Of a stretch of 64,000 nucleotides of DNA, positions 7,568 to 15,812 are shown piece by piece. Origin of the DNA: Bacillota bacterium (GTDB taxonomy: Bacteria > Bacillota_I > Bacilli_A > Acholeplasmatales > Acholeplasmataceae); NCBI GenBank assembly GCA_043819945.1, contig JBDREH010000036.1:82-64081 (forward strand), written 5' to 3'. The first letter of the stretch is position 1. The number at the start of each line of letters is the position of its first letter. The notes under the pieces are model-generated. The model was not told the origin of the DNA and searched no databases. It saw nothing but the letters and a program-made list of their open reading frames with translations. The position numbers were made by a program, and so were the translations under genes.

Positions 7568-8206
7568 TTATGCTAAGTAACTTGTGAGTATTGAATTAAC
7601 ATCAATAAGTGTTGCTTGGACAAACAACATATGATCATATCTCATTTCAAGAATATCAAGGATAGCTTCGAAGTTTTGAATAATCACATCCAAGTGATCA
7701 AGATCATAAAGTCCCTTAAGCTCCATTAACATCTCTTTAATATCTCCAACCGTTTCCATAACTTCTAAACGTCTAATACTAAATTCTGTTTTGTAAGTCA
7801 ATAGAATTGTTTGATCATCTTCAGTCAATGTAAGTTCTGCATCCCTAAAGGCTTGAACACATAATTTTAAAGCTGACCAACTATCTTTGTTCTCATATCT
7901 GATTAATATATTTTGAGCGTGAGCAATTTGAATATCTTCAAACAATGATCTGATATATGCAATCTTTTCCAAATTGGTCATATCGTCGGTACCCAATGTC
8001 ATACTGAGCTGCTGAATATTTTCAAAGCTTAACTGATCTAACGTTTGATTGTTCACATCTGTTTCTTCAATGGCTTCATAACTGGCCATTAAGCTAATTT
8101 CATCTGATGCCGCACGTTCGAATACGGATAAAGCATCCTGTGCTTGACATCCCACTAAACTGATCACTAACATTGCTATTGTAAATATTGATAGTACTTT
8201 TTTCAT
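7568..8206 (-). CDS. Lipoprotein, unknown function
   Basis: MKK-hydrophobic-LVGC lipobox; GGAGG RBS; helical mature part. Confidence 0.75.
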   Translation of the reverse strand: MKKVLSIFTIAMLVISLVGCQAQDALSVFERAASDEISLMASYEAIEETDVNNQTLDQLSFENIQQLSMTLGTDDMTNLEKIAYIRSLFEDIQIAHAQNILIRYENKDSWSALKLCVQAFRDAELTLTEDDQTILLTYKTEFSIRRLEVMETVGDIKEMLMELKGLYDLDHLDVIIQNFEAILDILEMRYDHMLFVQATLIDVNSILTSYLA

Positions 8207-8516: not shown

Positions 8517-9278
8517 ATGGAATGGTTAGTTAATATTGCATTAGGCATATCAGGAATAGTTATTATTTTAGCTCTATATGCATTCATACGAAATATCATT
8601 AGACAACTTAGAGAACCACGGGTCATTGAAAAGGCTGAAGTAGCAAGAACAAATAGAGAAATAACATTTATTAGCTCAAGTGGAACTTCAACAATTGCTT
8701 CTAGTAACGGTTATGGAAAATCTACATATTTTGTTACATTTAAGATTGAAAGTGGGAAATTAGTCACTTTTAAAGTTAAAAAACAGTTTTTCTTAAGTAT
8801 ATCAGACCATCAAACAGGTATACTCACATATAAAGGATATAAATTGCTTAACTTTGACTATGAAGGATATCCGATTAACTCAATTCAATGGAAATCATTA
8901 AATATATCACCTTTTTTTGGTAGTAAGAAGCATAATGCACCTGTAGTACGTTTTTATGGTGAAGCAAAAGAACTTGATGTAAATTATCATTCGGATCAAG
9001 CAATTGATTGTGACCAAACAGAACTCAATCGTTTCATTGATCAATTAATTAATCAGGAATCTGACAATTTCTTCTGCTTACAAAACGAGAAAAACCAAAT
9101 TCTTGAAGTATCCAACAGTGGTAAGAATGAAGAATTTGAATTGGTCTATATGCATCCTACATCACAAGATCGCTTCTTGGGTAAAGTGACTGGAGCTGAA
9201 GCACTCAAATCAGTCATCGATGCCTATTTTAATGAGTTAGATGTAATCAAAGAATTCAATCTTTCTATTGAATCGTGA
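8517..9278 (+). CDS. DUF2500-like domain protein with extra C-terminal domain
   Basis: N-terminal TM then YFVTFKIESG...FKV...GILTYKG pattern typical of DUF2500; GGGGAG RBS; TTGACA-18-TAATAT at 8389-8418. Confidence 0.6.
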   Translation: MEWLVNIALGISGIVIILALYAFIRNIIRQLREPRVIEKAEVARTNREITFISSSGTSTIASSNGYGKSTYFVTFKIESGKLVTFKVKKQFFLSISDHQTGILTYKGYKLLNFDYEGYPINSIQWKSLNISPFFGSKKHNAPVVRFYGEAKELDVNYHSDQAIDCDQTELNRFIDQLINQESDNFFCLQNEKNQILEVSNSGKNEEFELVYMHPTSQDRFLGKVTGAEALKSVIDAYFNELDVIKEFNLSIES

Positions 9279-9363
9279 AAATACATCAAGTCTATAGATA
9301 GTTTGAACACTACATAAGGGCATAGCCCTTATTTTTTTACAATAAAAAATTAATATTAAATTA

Positions 9364-9393
9364 TTGACAATAGTGTATGACATACAGTATAAT
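9364..9393 (+). promoter_or_regulatory. Consensus sigma-70 promoter with palindromic operator in the spacer
   Basis: TTGACA (9364-9369), 18 nt, TATAAT (9388-9393). Perfect TGTATG-A-CATACA palindrome at 9374-9386. Confidence 0.8.
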
Positions 9394-9411
9394 ATTGTTG
9401 AGGTGATATTT

Positions 9412-9750
9412 ATGAGTGATGCATCATTATTTGCCAATCTTGTTGTTGAATTGCGTAGAGGAACACAAATTATTGCTGTGCTCAGTCAGCTTCAAGAAAA
9501 TCAATATGGATATTCATTGCTTCAAAGACTTAATGAAAAGAAAATAAACATAGAAGCTGGAACACTATATCCTTTGATGAGAAGACTTGAATCTCAAGGT
9601 GTACTTGTGAGTGAATGGGATACAAGTGAATCAAGACCTAGAAAGTATTATGTGTTAAGTGAGATGGGTCAAGATATATTAATAGAGCTGAAAAAAGAAT
9701 GGTATAGATTATCCAAAGAAATGGATGAATTATTTAAGGAGGAAAAATGA
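9412..9750 (+). CDS. PadR family transcriptional regulator
   Basis: YGYSLLQ...IEAGTLYPLMRRLE...RPRKYYVLSEMG; AGGTGA RBS gives ATG 9412. Confidence 0.92.
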   Translation: MSDASLFANLVVELRRGTQIIAVLSQLQENQYGYSLLQRLNEKKINIEAGTLYPLMRRLESQGVLVSEWDTSESRPRKYYVLSEMGQDILIELKKEWYRLSKEMDELFKEEK

Positions 9751-10745
9751 TGAAACAGATAATTGATCGTTACGTGTTTGACGTAATCAGAAGATTGCCA
9801 GATGATAGCAAAGAGGATGTTAAAAAGGAATTGCTGGCAAATATTGATGATATGCTAGCTGAGAATCGCAGTGAAGATCATATCGAAAAAGTGTTATTAG
9901 AGTTAGGCGAACCCAGACTTTTGGCAAATCGATATCGGTCAAAGGATCGTTATTTGATTTCTCCTGCATATTTTGACGATTATTTGCGTATTCTCAAGAT
10001 TGTCATGATTATTTTTCTTTCCGTCTCATTGGTTTTTGGATCTATTGACCTAATCCTTAATCTATCTACACAATCACCTTGGGAGATGATAGGAGAAGTG
10101 TTTTCAAAATTAATCGTTAATGCATTTACTTCACTACTATCTGCATTTGCTTGGGTGACTCTAATATTTTGGGGCATAGAAAAAGCAGAAGAAAAAACAA
10201 AGATCAAAGTTTGGAAGCTTTCAAATTTACCTGAACTACCAAAACAAAACTCAGCTAAAATCAATCGAACAGGTGCCGTATTTTTGCTAGTGATTGAAAC
10301 TATATTTGCAGTGATATTCATTAGTTTGCTCATCAACTATATAGATTATTTAGGTATATATGAGAACACAACGATGGTTGCTCCTATTTTTACAAAAGAA
10401 ATCGTTGCAGCCTTTATTCCATTACTTATATTGTCGGCATCACTTTCCATCATTGTCAGCGCGATTAAAGTATTTTATGCAGCATGGAATGTAAAATTGG
10501 TGTGTATCTATACATTGAGCAAAGTATTTTCTGTGATTGTTGCAATTATCTTTATTAATTATCCCAATCTATTCAATATTTTAATGTTTGATAAAATAGG
10601 GGAGTATTTATCTATTACTACCAATGAAGTTGCAGATGGGTTTGCTCGAGGTATTCGCATCTTCAGCATCTTCTTAGGTTTAGCTGTGACAGTTGATCTG
10701 ATTACTACTTGGTTGAAAACAATAAAAACTACAAAAAGCAATTAA
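9747..10745 (+). CDS. PadR-associated membrane protein with N-terminal HAAS-like domain
   Basis: IDRYV..V.RRLP...DV.KEL..NIDDML...LGEPRLLA.RY N-terminus followed by multiple TM helices; overlaps padR stop. Confidence 0.75.
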   Translation: MMKQIIDRYVFDVIRRLPDDSKEDVKKELLANIDDMLAENRSEDHIEKVLLELGEPRLLANRYRSKDRYLISPAYFDDYLRILKIVMIIFLSVSLVFGSIDLILNLSTQSPWEMIGEVFSKLIVNAFTSLLSAFAWVTLIFWGIEKAEEKTKIKVWKLSNLPELPKQNSAKINRTGAVFLLVIETIFAVIFISLLINYIDYLGIYENTTMVAPIFTKEIVAAFIPLLILSASLSIIVSAIKVFYAAWNVKLVCIYTLSKVFSVIVAIIFINYPNLFNILMFDKIGEYLSITTNEVADGFARGIRIFSIFLGLAVTVDLITTWLKTIKTTKSN

Positions 10746-10759
10746 CCTTAATACTCAAC

Positions 10760-10786
10760 AAATGCATTTCTAAATGGAATGCATTT
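10760..10786 (+). terminator. Intrinsic terminator
   Basis: aaatgcatt...aatgcattt followed by T-rich run. Confidence 0.65.
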
Positions 10787-10868
10787 TTATATTTTTTTTA
10801 CTTTGTACCAGTAAAATAGACTACTAAAATCGTTTATATGGTGATTAAAGAAAAGAGAGGGAAGAAAA

Positions 10869-11909
10869 ATGAAAAAAATTTTATTAAGTTTCACCATGTT
10901 AATGATTGTCGTTGGCTTATCTTCGTGTACTGGCTTATCTGCTTTTGTACAAGCTTTTGAATTTGCATCAGATGAAGAAGTATTTTCTTTTTCAGCAATT
11001 TCAACATCAGCATTGCTTAGTGATAAAGTAGTTGAACCTTTATCAGCAACACATGCTGTAAGTCGCTTAAGTAATGAAACCCCTAATATGACAATTGAAC
11101 AAATTGAGCCATTTCTTGAGATGTTTGAATCACTTTTAATGCAAAACAACGGGTTATCAGTAGTTACAGGTGAATCTGATCTTGAGCTATATGAAACAAA
11201 AAGTGAATTTACAGTTGTGGATTTACTCGGGACTCCAGTGGTTTACACAATGTACTATAATACTATTCTATTGAATGAGGAAATAGATGAACAAGAGTTA
11301 CAGTACGAAATCAATGGCATTTTATTGGTCGGTACAACTGAATATCAAATCACTGGAAGTAAAAAGATTGAGGATGGAGAAGAAAAAATGACTTTTAAAT
11401 CCTATTTTGATGAAAACAACTATGTTATTTCAAAATATCAAATTGAAGATGATGAAAAGAAATTTTCTATTCAAGTCGTTGAAAATGGGATTACCGTATT
11501 ATCAAGTAAGATTAAAGTTGAAATTGAAGATAATGAAACTACGATTAAACTTGAATATACCGAAGGCGTCAATCAAAGCATCTATTCTTTCAAAGTTGAA
11601 GTTGAAGGTGATATCAGTGTTTTGAAAATCAAATATCAAACAGTATTTGATGGTGTTGAAGACTCAGGAAAAATTACAGTACAGGTTGCAATCGATGAAT
11701 TAACTGGAGTAGCAAACTATCAAATATATATAGAACCAGATCATGAAGAGGCTTATGAACATGAGTCTGAACGTAAATCCAATGATGATGATGACGATCA
11801 GGATGATTACGAAGATCAAGATGATCAAGACGATCAGGACAATCAGGACGATTATGATGATCAAGATGATAATGATACAGAAGACATAGTTACAGGTGCA
11901 ACAGTGTAA
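10869..11909 (+). CDS. Lipoprotein with acidic C-tail, paralogous to the anti-sigma ectodomain at 12528-13691
   Basis: LSSC lipobox; shared blocks with 12528 ORF (IEPFLEM/IEPYLEM, DLLG, VENG, YQT, YEHESERK/YEYESDRK); Asp/Gln-rich tail. Confidence 0.8.
   Translation: MKKILLSFTMLMIVVGLSSCTGLSAFVQAFEFASDEEVFSFSAISTSALLSDKVVEPLSATHAVSRLSNETPNMTIEQIEPFLEMFESLLMQNNGLSVVTGESDLELYETKSEFTVVDLLGTPVVYTMYYNTILLNEEIDEQELQYEINGILLVGTTEYQITGSKKIEDGEEKMTFKSYFDENNYVISKYQIEDDEKKFSIQVVENGITVLSSKIKVEIEDNETTIKLEYTEGVNQSIYSFKVEVEGDISVLKIKYQTVFDGVEDSGKITVQVAIDELTGVANYQIYIEPDHEEAYEHESERKSNDDDDDQDDYEDQDDQDDQDNQDDYDDQDDNDTEDIVTGATV
11784..11876 (+). repeat. Imperfect 9-bp in-frame repeats encoding a DDQ acidic tract
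   Basis: gatgatcaa/gacgatcag-like units; protein DDDDDQDDYEDQDDQDDQDNQDDYDDQDDND. Confidence 0.8.
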
Positions 11910-11955
11910 AGATAAGTGTCTAGAAAGTAAATATACTCGTGAATTAATAATCTAG

Positions 11956-12002
11956 TGTAAAATAGTGATTAGAGAGTTGCATTCTTGAAATCACTATTTA
12001 CA
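11956..12002. promoter_or_regulatory. Long hairpin abutting the RBS of the ECF sigma gene
   Basis: tgtaaaatagtgatt (11956-11970) pairs with aatcactatttaca (11989-12002); no U-tract; GAGGAG RBS follows at 12004. Confidence 0.5.
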
Positions 12003-12016
12003 TGAGGAGTTTTCGA

Positions 12017-12556
12017 ATGGTAATCAATCAATCATATATCGATAGAATCAAAAACAAAGATGATGATGCATTTGAATATATTTACGAAGCTACCAAAAGA
12101 GCTGTGTATTCTGTGATTTTTGCTATCACTAAAAATTATTTTGTTTCTGAGGATTTAATGCAGGAAGTCTATATGAAAATGATTGCTTCCATTCATCAAT
12201 ACAAAGAAAACACGAATTTTTATAATTGGATTTTGCAAATCGCACATCATCTAGCAATTGATTATTACCGCAAAAATAAGAGAAAGATTAGTTTGGATAT
12301 CAATGACTATAACGAAATATTAGTTGGCAAAGAACTAAGACCCGATGAAGAAGAACAATTTATGCAGATGATTGAAGTACTAGATGAGGATGAACGTTTG
12401 GTAGTTATTTTAAAAGTTGTTGATGAAATGAAACACCGTGAAATAGCAAAACTGCTTGAAAAACCAATTGGAACAATCATATGGATATACCAAAAAGCGA
12501 TACACAAACTCAAGAAAGTAGGAGAATATGATGATGAAAAAACAGCAAATAATTAA
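12017..12556 (+). CDS. ECF-type RNA polymerase sigma factor
   Basis: Region 2 (AFEYIY...EDLMQEVYMK...FYNWILQIAHHLAIDYYRK) and region 4 (LDEDERLVVIL...HREIAKLLEKPIGTI); RBS supports ATG 12017. Confidence 0.92.
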   Translation: MVINQSYIDRIKNKDDDAFEYIYEATKRAVYSVIFAITKNYFVSEDLMQEVYMKMIASIHQYKENTNFYNWILQIAHHLAIDYYRKNKRKISLDINDYNEILVGKELRPDEEEQFMQMIEVLDEDERLVVILKVVDEMKHREIAKLLEKPIGTIIWIYQKAIHKLKKVGEYDDEKTANN

Positions 12557-13691
12557 CTTATTTAAACAAAATATTGAATCGCATATTCCAACTGCTATGC
12601 CTAGAATTGATTGGAGTCTTGTTCTTGTTGAACAAAGCGATTCCACCTTGTTAAACTTAAGAAAACCTCATTCCAACCTGTTTCCTGGTTTTAAAATGAT
12701 CTTAAGTGTGATGTTTGTTTTTGCAATGATTATCTTTGGAATCGGTTTATTAAACACAAATCCAGTTGAAGAATCTAAGAACCCATACACGAACATTGTC
12801 TATCAAAAGACATTATCAATTTCCGCTGTATCAACAGCAACATTAATCAGCAATTATACTGCGACATCAGTATCAACCAATCAAGCTCTCAGCTTAGCTT
12901 ACGAGCTTGCTGCGACTCAAACAGTTGATACAATAGAACCATATTTAGAAATGATTGAAACAATCACAGGTCAAAACCTAGGTATTGCGATAACAAATGA
13001 AATTTCAGAGAATCCTTTATATGAATCAAAAGTTGTCTTAACCACCTTAGATTTATTAGGAAATGTAATGACATATACACTATACTTCAATTCAATATCT
13101 TACCAAGAGAAAGATAATCAAGTTGAATTTACAATTGAAGGAATCTTCTTATTTAAGAATAGACAATATGAATTTCTTGGGAAAAAAGAGATTGATGGTG
13201 ATGAAGAGATTATTGCTTTTAAAACCATTTCCGATGCCAGTAATTATGTTGAATCAAGCTATAAAATAGAAGATGGAGAAAGCAAATATAATATCAAAAT
13301 TGTTGAAAATGGTGTAATTGTATCACAAAGTAAAATTAGGATAGAAGATGAAGATGGCCAGAAAAAAATTAATTTTGAATATATCGATGGGCAAAATAAC
13401 AGTCAATATGAATTTGAATACGATACTGAGGGTGGCAAAAATATTCTAAAGGTAGAATATCAAACAATAACAAATGGTTTTGAAGAGTCAGGTCAAATGC
13501 AGGTTGAAATTAAAATTGACAGCATTACAGGACAAACTTCATATCAAATATTTGTTAGACCTGATGGCGAAAACGAATATGAGTATGAATCAGACAGAAA
13601 AATAGATCATGATGATGATGACGATGAGCAAGAACCCGATGAGGAGAACGAACGAGACGAAGAAGATGAAGAAGATGAGTCTGAAGATTAA
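12528..13691 (+). CDS. Putative anti-sigma factor, single TM, large ectodomain
   Basis: Overlaps sigma gene end; short cytoplasmic N-terminus, one TM, ectodomain homologous to upstream lipoprotein, acidic tail. Confidence 0.7.
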   Translation: MMMKKQQIINLFKQNIESHIPTAMPRIDWSLVLVEQSDSTLLNLRKPHSNLFPGFKMILSVMFVFAMIIFGIGLLNTNPVEESKNPYTNIVYQKTLSISAVSTATLISNYTATSVSTNQALSLAYELAATQTVDTIEPYLEMIETITGQNLGIAITNEISENPLYESKVVLTTLDLLGNVMTYTLYFNSISYQEKDNQVEFTIEGIFLFKNRQYEFLGKKEIDGDEEIIAFKTISDASNYVESSYKIEDGESKYNIKIVENGVIVSQSKIRIEDEDGQKKINFEYIDGQNNSQYEFEYDTEGGKNILKVEYQTITNGFEESGQMQVEIKIDSITGQTSYQIFVRPDGENEYEYESDRKIDHDDDDDEQEPDEENERDEEDEEDESED

Positions 13692-13806
13692 AATCAGAGA
13701 AATTCAGACTTAATTTTGAGGAAATATCCAATCTATTTTCAATTTGATCTTTTAACGATTCGATTCGACGACATTAAAAAGATTATCATAGGAAATTAGT
13801 ATTGAT

Positions 13807-13837
13807 AAACGCAATGTGCTCAGCATTGCGTTTTTTT
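13807..13837 (+). terminator. Intrinsic terminator
   Basis: aaacgcaatg-tgctcag-cattgcgttttttt. Confidence 0.8.
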
Positions 13838-13997
13838 GACTGACTTTTCATCAATTGCATTTGATATGTAATCGATACGTATATATCACCTGTTTATATT
13901 TTTTCGTTATATTTGACTTATTTTAGCTAAAAATGAATTTAGATTTCTTTTATTTAATCCATTTGTCGTATAATATAACTAAATAAGAGGTGAAAGC

Positions 13998-15812
13998 ATG
14001 TGGAAAATTAAAGAAAGATTTGCTCGTGCCAAGAGCTTAATAAGCATTAAAACATATAAAAGACCTTTGATCTATATCATTTCACTCATGGTTATTCTCA
14101 ATCTCATTATTCTTTCAATAGCTGCAGTTATTGCTTTATTCATTGATGATGAATTCAGTAATTTTGTTGATGCATTTGCCAATGGCAGCTTGAAATGGAT
14201 GCTTGCACCTAATGCTATTTTGAGTATACAAAATCCAGATATGCTAGTTTTGGCAGTTATCGTATTAGTTACTGGGATCATTCTATTTTCAGGTACAATT
14301 ATTGCATTAACAACAAATGCAATTAAAGATTATGTTCAAAAGAAAAATAGTGGTTCAGGTAAAATTCATCTAGATCACCACATTGCCATCCTCAACTGGA
14401 ACAGCAAAGTTCCGGAACTCGTATCTGATTTACTCTATGTTGAAGATAAAGAAGTCACTGTGATGATTTTGGCTGATATCGACAAAAATTATGCTGAAAA
14501 ACAAATCATCAATGCAATACATAAGACAAATATTACGCAAAGTATCGTGAAAATGAACGTATTGGTGAAGCGCGGAGATCCATTGTTGAGAAGTGATCTT
14601 TTAGATATTTCAATTGAAAGAGCTAAGGCAATCCTCATCATGAATCCAGACCGTCATCAAACGGTTTATAAAAACATGTCCAAAAGTGATCTAGCAGTCA
14701 TTAAAGTTATTTTAGGACTTGGTCCGATTGAATTTCTCTATGAACCTCCTATCGTTGTAGAGATTAAACACATTGATAGCAGAGAAAAGATTATGACGCT
14801 TTCCAGAGTAGTTGATAAACTTCACGAGCATATCATTATGCCGATATGCTTCGATATGAGACTTGGGCAAATCATAGCACAAACCTTAATTGAAAATCAG
14901 ATTGAAGATGTATATTTAGCATTATTTTCATTTCAAGGTTCTGAAGTATATGCACTCGAACATACAACGTTTGATGAGTGTATAAGCAATAACTCACACG
15001 CTATTCCCCTTACTATTCAGGATGATCTACTTTTTGTATTATCGCTTAGTGACAACGTTAAATCGAAGAAATCCCCACATCTTCATCCTTTGATTAAAAT
15101 GAAAGCAAAACCAATGTCCAACCCATCGGATATTGAAATATTTATTATCGGTAAAAACAATAAGTTGCAATTTATTCTTGACTCACTCAATCAATATGAA
15201 AAGATTCAAAAAAGTAAATTTCAAGCTTCATGGGTTGATGATGAAGATATTTCTGAACTTGTTGCAAAATTGAACCAATCAAACCAATCAACCTCTATTC
15301 TTTTATTAAGTGATGAGAGCCAAGCTGAAGATGCACTTGATGCCAATGTTATTGATAATCTCATTTACCTAGAAGGCAATCTTACGAATAAAAATGTTCA
15401 TATAATCGTTGAACTATTAAATCCTAAAAACGACCCTATTGTTAAAGATTTTAATATCAAAAATACGATCATTTCCAACAAAATAATATCTCTTCTATTG
15501 AGCAAGCTTGCTTTATATAAAAATACAGCTCCATTTTATGAAGACTTGCTGACTATTGAACCCAATGAGAGTAATGTAGATAAGCTGGCAATAACCATCA
15601 AAACTGCCCATGAGTGTTTTGATGAAACCTTTCCTTTAGTTTTCAAATCAAAAAAACAGGCTATCCATTCGATATATGAAAGCTTGAATCAAGAATATAT
15701 AGTTCTTGGATATTTCCACGATAATCAACTCCTTATTTTTGAAAATGATTTACACAAATCAGAAACGATCACTATTCAAGGCGATGATCGAATCATTCTT
15801 ATTCGCATCTAG
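13998..15812 (+). CDS. CASTOR/POLLUX-like putative ion channel (2 TM plus RCK-like domains)
   Basis: Two N-terminal TM helices around a re-entrant segment, then HIAILNWNSK and RGDPL...L.DISIERAKAILIM RCK-type motifs, second RCK-like half. Confidence 0.6.
   Translation: MWKIKERFARAKSLISIKTYKRPLIYIISLMVILNLIILSIAAVIALFIDDEFSNFVDAFANGSLKWMLAPNAILSIQNPDMLVLAVIVLVTGIILFSGTIIALTTNAIKDYVQKKNSGSGKIHLDHHIAILNWNSKVPELVSDLLYVEDKEVTVMILADIDKNYAEKQIINAIHKTNITQSIVKMNVLVKRGDPLLRSDLLDISIERAKAILIMNPDRHQTVYKNMSKSDLAVIKVILGLGPIEFLYEPPIVVEIKHIDSREKIMTLSRVVDKLHEHIIMPICFDMRLGQIIAQTLIENQIEDVYLALFSFQGSEVYALEHTTFDECISNNSHAIPLTIQDDLLFVLSLSDNVKSKKSPHLHPLIKMKAKPMSNPSDIEIFIIGKNNKLQFILDSLNQYEKIQKSKFQASWVDDEDISELVAKLNQSNQSTSILLLSDESQAEDALDANVIDNLIYLEGNLTNKNVHIIVELLNPKNDPIVKDFNIKNTIISNKIISLLLSKLALYKNTAPFYEDLLTIEPNESNVDKLAITIKTAHECFDETFPLVFKSKKQAIHSIYESLNQEYIVLGYFHDNQLLIFENDLHKSETITIQGDDRIILIRI

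Follow-up and report, generated by a model that had tools for sequence, protein, structure and literature searches.

A sigma factor operon from a wall-less member of the Bacilli that may induce a lipid-anchored twin of its own sensor domain

Why would the gene for a sigma factor of the extracytoplasmic function (ECF) kind lie between two genes whose products carry the same outer domain, one as a lipoprotein and the other as a single-pass membrane protein? The question is raised by three genes at 10869-13691 of a 64,000-nucleotide stretch, hereafter the window (positions 82 to 64,081 of the forward strand of contig JBDREH010000036.1, assembly GCA_043819945.1, from a groundwater member of the Acholeplasmataceae related to Acholeplasma). 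A cell wall is lacking in the acholeplasmas and in related Bacilli with small genomes. We propose that the three genes probably form an autoregulated ECF switch, the main output of which is a lipid-anchored copy of the switch's own sensor domain that gives negative feedback. The basic wiring, that is, a sigma factor, its anti-sigma factor and the lipoprotein twin as the induced product, can be put forward with good confidence; that the twin closes a negative feedback loop is a more tentative suggestion, to which we give slightly less than even weight. The open reading frames (ORFs) concerned all lie on the plus strand of the window (10869-11909, 12002 or 12017 to 12556, and 12528-13691), and their products are divided as follows.

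10869-11909, plus strand: twin lipoprotein, 346 aa, with a signal peptide and the lipobox LSSC (Cys20)
10977-11774, plus strand: ectodomain of the lipoprotein (residues 37-302), followed by an acidic disordered tail (residues 303-346) with the terminal sequence TGATV
12017-12556, plus strand: ECF sigma factor, about 179 aa, with Sigma70_r2 and Sigma70_r4_2 and a TIGR02937 score above the cut-off
12528-13691, plus strand: anti-sigma-like single-pass protein, 387 aa, with a cytoplasmic N-terminus, a transmembrane segment, an ectodomain and an acidic tail
12693-12761: transmembrane segment of the anti-sigma-like protein (about residues 56-78)
12807-13598: ectodomain of the anti-sigma-like protein (residues 94-357), followed by the acidic tail (residues 358-387)

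The most likely start of the sigma gene is the ATG at 12017 rather than the codon at 12002, because a GAGGAG ribosome-binding site (12004-12009) is positioned 7 nt upstream of it. Likewise, the anti-sigma gene most likely starts at 12531 or 12534 rather than at 12528, because these positions are preceded by AGGAG at 12520-12524; depending on which start is used, the two genes overlap by 23-29 nt. Cys20 of the lipobox is invariant in 22 homologs of the lipoprotein, as expected of a bacterial lipoprotein.

The lipoprotein and the protein encoded after the sigma gene are collinear paralogs. BLASTP aligned 297 residues of the two (E=3e-67), with 37% identity, 61% positives and no more than 2 gaps. 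Collinear homology had been proposed in an earlier reading of this DNA (the original prediction) on the basis of short shared blocks, and those blocks (SAISTSAL/SAVSTATL, IEPFLEM/IEPYLEM, DLLG, NYV.S.Y, VENG and YQI..P) are indeed conserved columns of the family alignment. Because the pairwise alignment stops before the acidic tails, and is significant outside them, the similarity is not driven by low-complexity sequence. One could argue, given the long poly-Asp/Glu tails on both proteins, that the resemblance is an artefact of acidic low-complexity sequence, or that it reflects a recent local duplication without functional coupling. This reading is refuted by the tail-free alignment, by the persistence of the pair across families and in two gene orders, and by the twins of one genome being only 26-48% identical, which means that they are not recent duplicates; furthermore, the reading frames of both copies have stayed open, and their confidently predicted fold is the same. 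We find it hardly credible.

Structure modelling agreed with the idea of one shared domain. AlphaFold2 models were built for the anti-sigma-like protein from an alignment of 24 sequences and for the lipoprotein from a separate alignment of 22. The former contains a helix at residues 5-17 (low confidence), the transmembrane helix (55-75), two helices at 90-110 and 125-150 with a variable loop between them, a run of 15 antiparallel strands connected by tight turns (154-356, pLDDT 85-93) and the disordered acidic tail. The lipoprotein model has helices at 35-51 and 73-91 and 15 strands at 97-301 (pLDDT 82-96). The twins are, thus, confidently predicted to share one topology, two helices followed by a 15-strand antiparallel meander, for which no solved relative was detected in the PDB.

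The question whether this domain had already been annotated was answered by searches of Pfam, NCBIfam and the PDB, which found no family for it. No Pfam or NCBIfam family was assigned to the domain in the twins, in 17 relatives scanned singly or in 10 longer relatives, and the ectodomain profile matched no PDB sequence; the few matches obtained, such as MacB_PCD, DUF4992 and Ig-like, were at chance level and were set aside. A word-indexed search returned 22 clusters, all of them hypothetical proteins of Acholeplasmataceae or "Firmicutes" metagenome-assembled genomes (MAGs), and the close relatives named in a single-protein scan were Acholeplasmatales, Acholeplasmataceae and Mariniplasma MAGs. 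In an exhaustive profile search, the family grew to 1135 clusters (50% identity, E<=1e-3), of which 762 had E<=1e-10. Two forms account for most of the 173 sequences inspected: lipoproteins with a lipobox, in which the domain starts at about residue 35-45 (71 sequences), and proteins with a cytoplasmic N-terminus and a transmembrane segment near residue 50, in which it starts at about residue 85-95 (79 sequences). The remaining 23 are mostly fragments or lipoproteins with a longer leader. The domain was found in 41 of 200 sampled genomes, representing 29 of 137 genera of the class, with a concentration in small genomes of the window's family and order and a presence in several other families; no match was obtained outside the class in a phylum-level sample. 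Occasional fusions of the ectodomain were seen in the proteins P0049 and P0116, in one case with a set of four PepSY-like repeats (648 aa) and in the other with a cytochrome b5-like heme/steroid-binding domain (a lipoprotein of 504 aa), and possibly hint at the class of ligand.

The middle gene encodes an ECF (group IV) sigma-70 factor, judged from its domain content of regions 2 and 4 only (Sigma70_r2, 2.4e-14; Sigma70_r4_2, 4.2e-9) and from its match to the ECF superfamily model TIGR02937 (87 bits, cut-off 42.9). It scored far below the NCBIfam cut-offs of all the named ECF equivalogs (BldN, SigY, SigX, SigW, SigM, SigV and SigZ), the best score being 91.5 bits for the BldN family, for which 206 are required; the SigW and SigV models gave 66 bits (cut-off 209) and 51 bits (cut-off 190), respectively. 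The 1.58-Mb genome has four genes of the sigma-70 family, and two of the three alternative sigma factors are tied to the shared ectodomain.

The product of the 12528 gene has the layout of a membrane anti-sigma factor, with a gene coupled to that of the sigma factor, a single membrane pass with the N-terminus inside and a conserved cytoplasmic segment, and we regard it as a putative anti-sigma factor on these grounds. Its N-terminus carries the motif MKKxxIxxxxKxNIESHIP..ID, and its membrane-spanning relatives carry MKKxxIKKxIKxxIxSxxP....ID at the same place. The motif and a transmembrane segment at about residues 50-78 are conserved in the 79 relatives of this form; the motif spans 25 cytoplasmic residues, and the lipoprotein form lacks it. 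A class I anti-sigma domain (ZAS/zf-HC2, the RsrA-RslA type) was not recognised, and the motif (MKKxxIxxxIKxxIESHIP) has no Cys. One could therefore suppose that the protein is not an anti-sigma factor at all, and that the two paralogs are merely co-expressed surface proteins under an ECF sigma factor controlled in some other way. This would agree with the N-terminus matching no known anti-sigma domain (Pfam, and an N-terminal profile against Pfam and the PDB) and with the low AlphaFold confidence of residues 1-59 (pLDDT 25-59). It would leave a module that, by its ORFs in the window, has no other candidate anti-sigma gene, and it is at odds with the confinement of the 25-residue motif to the membrane-spanning form and with the coupling to the sigma gene, which recurs in 17 of 17 other loci examined. 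We judge it improbable. The presence of an M50 site-2 protease in the genome (PF02163, 209.7 bits, at C5:1118-2614) makes it plausible that the anti-sigma factor would be removed by regulated intramembrane proteolysis.

The trio behaves as a conserved module, which supports the original prediction. Metagenomic contigs with orthologs all have the order lipoprotein-sigma-anti-sigma (order A). The 20 genome loci comprise five of order A, nine of the order sigma-anti-sigma-lipoprotein (order B), which belong to other families, two with sigma and anti-sigma genes only and four in which the lipoprotein gene stands alone, in one case at the end of a contig. In every locus with both genes, that for the anti-sigma form directly follows the sigma gene, overlapping or abutting it. 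A complete genome from the same family, G200, which consists of one contig of 1,496,992 bp, carries the trio too, at 444.6-447.1 kb.

According to a tree of 43 ectodomains, the lipoprotein (L) and anti-sigma (A) copies do not fall into two ancient clades; within lineages, the two kinds are sisters to one another. Five A copies are sister to five L copies in the group closest to the window, with a Shimodaira-Hasegawa-like approximate likelihood ratio (SH-aLRT) support of 98; sister twins are also seen in the pairs of loci L009 and L024, and between six L and six A copies of order-B families. When all lipoproteins were constrained to one clade, the log-likelihood dropped by 114 units, and the approximately unbiased (AU) test rejects the idea that the two forms split once, in ancient times (p=4.7e-7). 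Repeated duplication, gene conversion, or co-evolution through a shared target or mutual recognition would all fit this tree, and the two gene orders may represent independent duplication events.

In nearly all order-A modules, which are those of the Acholeplasmataceae type, the domain of each twin is followed by a poly-Asp/Glu tail 25-75 residues long. Because they are absent from most order-B proteins (as well as from the anti-sigma protein of a second module in this genome, described below), the tails are a lineage-specific addition and not the core of the mechanism, and a role as core functional element was rejected. The proposal that they point to a cationic peptide or metal as ligand finds little support for the same reason, that is, their restriction to a lineage. 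In the window (11880-11906) and in the closest relatives (L004, L010 and P0018), the tail of the lipoprotein twin is followed by a short conserved, hydrophobic end motif that resembles TGATV/TEATI and takes forms such as VTGATV, TTEATI and TTGATV.

If the shared domain is a sensor in one protein, then the question is what controls the synthesis of the other. The elements on which our answer relies are listed below.

10760-10786, plus strand: intrinsic terminator of the upstream PadR/HAAS operon, an 11-bp stem followed by a T-run, which forms the left boundary of the module
10808-10836, plus strand: ECF-type promoter, with the -35 element CCAGTAA (10808-10814), a 16-nt spacer and the -10 element CGTTTA (10831-10836), followed by TATGGTG
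11956-11963, plus strand: predicted internal extended -10 promoter TGTAAAAT, for basal expression of the sigma and anti-sigma genes
11960-11999, plus strand: stem-loop with the arms AAATAGTGATT and AATCACTATTT, directly after the internal -10 element
13807-13833, plus strand: intrinsic terminator, an 11-bp stem followed by a T-run, which forms the right boundary of the module

No intrinsic terminator lies inside the trio, only the two that flank it. The CGTTTA box ends up about 32 nt before the start codon of the lipoprotein gene, and the corresponding pattern, ACCAATAA(AA), a spacer of about 15-16 nt and (C/T)GT(A/T)TA, recurs ahead of the module's first gene in about 19 of 22 loci, which come from several families. 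In order-A loci, the ECF-type promoter, therefore, precedes the lipoprotein gene and not the sigma gene. The spacer between these two genes has an element of its own in order-A loci, the conserved sequence TGnTA(A/T)AAT, and TGATATAAT is also present before the sigma gene in L035, L036 and L039; several order-B loci have an ECF box and then TGATATAAT in tandem. Stems of 10-14 bp occupy the same place at the window locus (W) and in L004, L009, L010, L023, L024 and L025, where the sequences differ and the stem is kept. We predict from this pattern that the spacer element is a basal housekeeping promoter with a 5′ stem-loop on the sigma mRNA. A basal promoter for the regulator pair and an inducible one before the twin would fit a twin that is made on demand.

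To estimate the regulon, the pattern CCA[AG]TAA-N15-17-[CT]GT[TA]TA was searched for over the 1.58-Mb assembly and compared with 20 first-order Markov simulations. Seven sites were observed, whereas the simulations averaged 1.75 and never exceeded 3. Five of the seven sites are located 20-45 nt upstream of start codons, namely those of the twin lipoprotein, a second ECF sigma factor (C31), a lipoprotein downstream of this second module, a paralog of that lipoprotein on C8 and, on C35, a DUF2202 protein that is secreted. The twin lipoprotein is the only one of them with a CGTTTA -10 element, the other four having TGTATA, and a relaxed scan of the genome found no further CGT-type site in promoter position. 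For the window's sigma factor (sigma-1), only one target could, then, be recognised: the operon to which it belongs, with the twin lipoprotein gene at its head.

The second ECF module, at C31:17000-19800 (L008:5052-7803, minus strand), encodes a sigma factor of 170 aa (sigma-2), an anti-sigma protein and a lipoprotein. Its anti-sigma protein (367 aa) has the same ectodomain, with 26% identity to that of the window and without the acidic tail. The lipoprotein (315 aa) is unrelated to the twin; it has an N-terminal RsgI_M part and a coiled-coil tail. The sigma-2 gene and this lipoprotein gene each have their own ACCAATAA-N16-TGTATA promoter. Sigma-2-type promoters also precede the C8 gene (C8:98963-100153), which encodes a lipoprotein of 375 aa with RsgI_M and a weak lipocalin/NlpE-like C-terminus, and the DUF2202 gene (C35:36476-37223). 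The relaxed scan gave, in addition, a possible site before the divergently transcribed gene of an 803-aa S8 subtilisin-like protease; this enzyme might act as the site-1 protease or be no more than a further member of the regulon.

The module is transcribed in situ. Three groundwater metatranscriptome runs contained assembled contigs identical (100%) to the window, and all 14 contig pieces lie within 10863-13660 and touch all three genes. In the same runs, no contigs fell on the flanks (9200-10860 and 13724-14400), which argues against carry-over of DNA. The upstream PadR/HAAS operon and the gene for a 604-aa membrane protein downstream were each considered as parts of the module and rejected, being separated from it by a terminator, syntenic in close relatives only and devoid of transcript contigs.

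Taken in order, the proposed switch would work as follows. At rest, the internal housekeeping-type promoter would supply the sigma factor and the single-pass anti-sigma factor, the short cytoplasmic N-terminus of which would hold sigma. A signal that perturbs the outer domain, with its helical hairpin and 15-strand beta meander, would lead to removal of the anti-sigma factor, most likely through regulated proteolysis, the last step of which would fall to the M50 site-2 protease of this genome. Free sigma would then read ACCAGTAA-N16-CGTTTA, so that lipoprotein, sigma and anti-sigma genes would be co-transcribed, and the lipoprotein twin would build up on the outside of the wall-less cell's membrane. 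Because it carries the sensor's own domain, the twin might damp the signal, through binding of the sensor's ligand or, alternatively, by pairing with the sensor domain and shielding it. The parts of this proposal that we infer are the binding of sigma, the proteolysis, the ligand and the direction in which the feedback acts. The original prediction had described a sensor/effector pair built from one duplicated domain. Its interpretation is supported in part: the promoter wiring would make the lipid-anchored twin the inducible output of the sigma factor, which fits such a pair.

Several observations weigh against this proposal, among them the unrecognised anti-sigma N-terminus mentioned above. 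An adjacent twin pair is present in only about half of the domain-bearing genomes, and the twin is therefore not obligatory for the family. The regulon was deduced from a motif, so that targets with degenerate promoters would escape, and sigma-1 might also read the very similar promoters of the sigma-2 type. The transcript data consist of assembled contigs, which provide neither strand-resolved depth nor quantity nor 5′ ends. Finally, Foldseek comparison of both models with the PDB gave no functional hint (best E=0.04, TM-score <=0.27). Its weak matches were scattered, and several were beta-barrels (TamA, Tom40, VDAC, a porin-like lipoprotein and HphA); with E values of at least 0.04, they justify assignment neither to a beta-barrel nor to any other fold.

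The closest operon logic is that of sigmaE-RseA-RseB (E. coli rpoE) and AlgU-MucA-MucB (Pseudomonas), in which an autoregulated ECF sigma factor and a single-pass anti-sigma factor are joined in the operon by a third extracytoplasmic protein, which leads one to expect that the third protein modulates the sensor. RseB and MucB are, however, LolA-like and unrelated to the periplasmic domain of RseA and MucA, whereas the third protein here, a lipoprotein, is itself paralogous to the sensor domain; the present host, unlike those of sigmaE and AlgU, has neither cell wall nor outer membrane. No Pfam match to MucB_RseB was found in 17 members sharing the domain, and Foldseek detected no LolA-like fold.

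One scenario based on these systems is that the lipoprotein is an accessory of the RseB/MucB type, which would bind the anti-sigma ectodomain and gate its cleavage, and that the real regulon is to be found elsewhere, the motif search having failed to detect it. It is established that RseB-like partners are co-transcribed with sigma/anti-sigma pairs, the twin domains co-evolve as interacting partners would, and the very similar -35 elements of the second module's promoters make cross-reading possible. The lipoprotein, however, resembles RseB/MucB neither in sequence nor in fold (the Foldseek match to MucB had E=0.33 and probability 0.04), and no other promoter of the CGTTTA type was found in the genome. 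An ECF promoter before the lipoprotein gene of order-A loci, with a separate basal promoter for the regulators, is, moreover, the layout of an induced product and not that of a constitutive co-sensor. We think that this scenario is unlikely.

The autoregulated switch that we favour also has a bolder version, in which the "ligand" of the sensor is its own output, and the module is a self-measuring homeostat of a surface coat. The twin would assemble like-with-like on the naked membrane, and the identical domain of the anti-sigma factor would join the assembly. Whenever the twin is scarce, or the coat is damaged or stripped, unpaired sensor would be exposed and degraded and sigma freed, and more twin would be made until the sensor is covered again. 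If true, this would explain the single-operon regulon, the occurrence of twins as sister groups within lineages and the link of two of the three alternative sigma factors to the domain; we nevertheless hold it to be doubtful.

In its design logic, the module is closest to SigI-RsgI of Clostridium thermocellum and Bacillus subtilis, where the sensor domain of the anti-sigma factor resembles domains of the induced proteins, so that sensor and output share a target of recognition. The differences are that the sigma factor here is of the ECF and not of the SigI type, that the outputs of SigI in C. thermocellum are enzymes whereas here the output would be a bare copy of the sensor domain, and that RsgI has the sigma-binding RsgI_N and the autoproteolytic juxtamembrane RsgI_M, both of which are absent from the 12528 product (Pfam). 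RsgI_M is the central extracytoplasmic domain of RsgI anti-sigma factors; in this genome, it occurs in the lipoprotein of the second module and in the C8 paralog. SigW/RsiW and SigV/RsiV of Bacillota are similar in having a coupled single-pass anti-sigma factor, an autoregulated promoter with a CGTA-type -10 element and a RasP-type site-2 protease, regulated intramembrane proteolysis being a probable further point in common. The -35 element of these pairs is GAAAC, that of the module is CCAATAA, and the anti-sigma protein here, unlike those of SigW/SigV-type pairs, has neither zf-HC2 nor DUF4179. To our knowledge, neither the SigW/RsiW nor the SigV/RsiV system has a twin lipoprotein. The original prediction had not recognised the architecture as described, and literature searches on ECF systems of Acholeplasma and Mollicutes and on anti-sigma factors with paralogous lipoproteins likewise gave no description of the domain or of the twin layout. 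We conclude that the general switch is familiar in kind, that the sensor domain is new and that the predicted output, a lipid-anchored copy of the sensor domain, is unusual.

The genes around the module provided some further observations. Directly upstream of the trio (9364-10745), an operon encodes a PadR regulator and a 332-aa multi-pass membrane protein with a HAAS domain, a pair that is syntenic in close relatives only (L006 and L007). A perfect TTGACA-18-TATAAT promoter (9364-9393) overlaps the listed TTG start of PadR, and PadR, therefore, probably starts at a later ATG, at about 9412 (MSDASL...). To the right (13998-15812), beyond the terminator and without transcript contigs, lies the gene of the 604-aa membrane protein, which has a weak RCK/Slo-like match and otherwise no family, and which is also the right neighbour in L006 and L007. 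Farther to the left are the genes for a DUF2500 protein (8517-9278) with an extra C-terminal region of about 140 residues that matches no family, and, on the minus strand (7568-8206), for an all-helical lipoprotein of 212 aa without a family match, which has the same relative position in L006 and L007.

The module bears on the question of how wall-less Bacilli sense damage at the sole layer of their envelope. Its sensor domain belongs to a family of more than 1000 sequence clusters that is neither listed in Pfam nor represented by a solved structure. Induction, by a sensor, of a second and lipid-anchored version of the domain with which it senses would be a simple feedback design, for which we found no ECF precedent in the literature searched, and the clean pairing of promoter and sigma factor may serve as a genetic part for wall-less chassis organisms.

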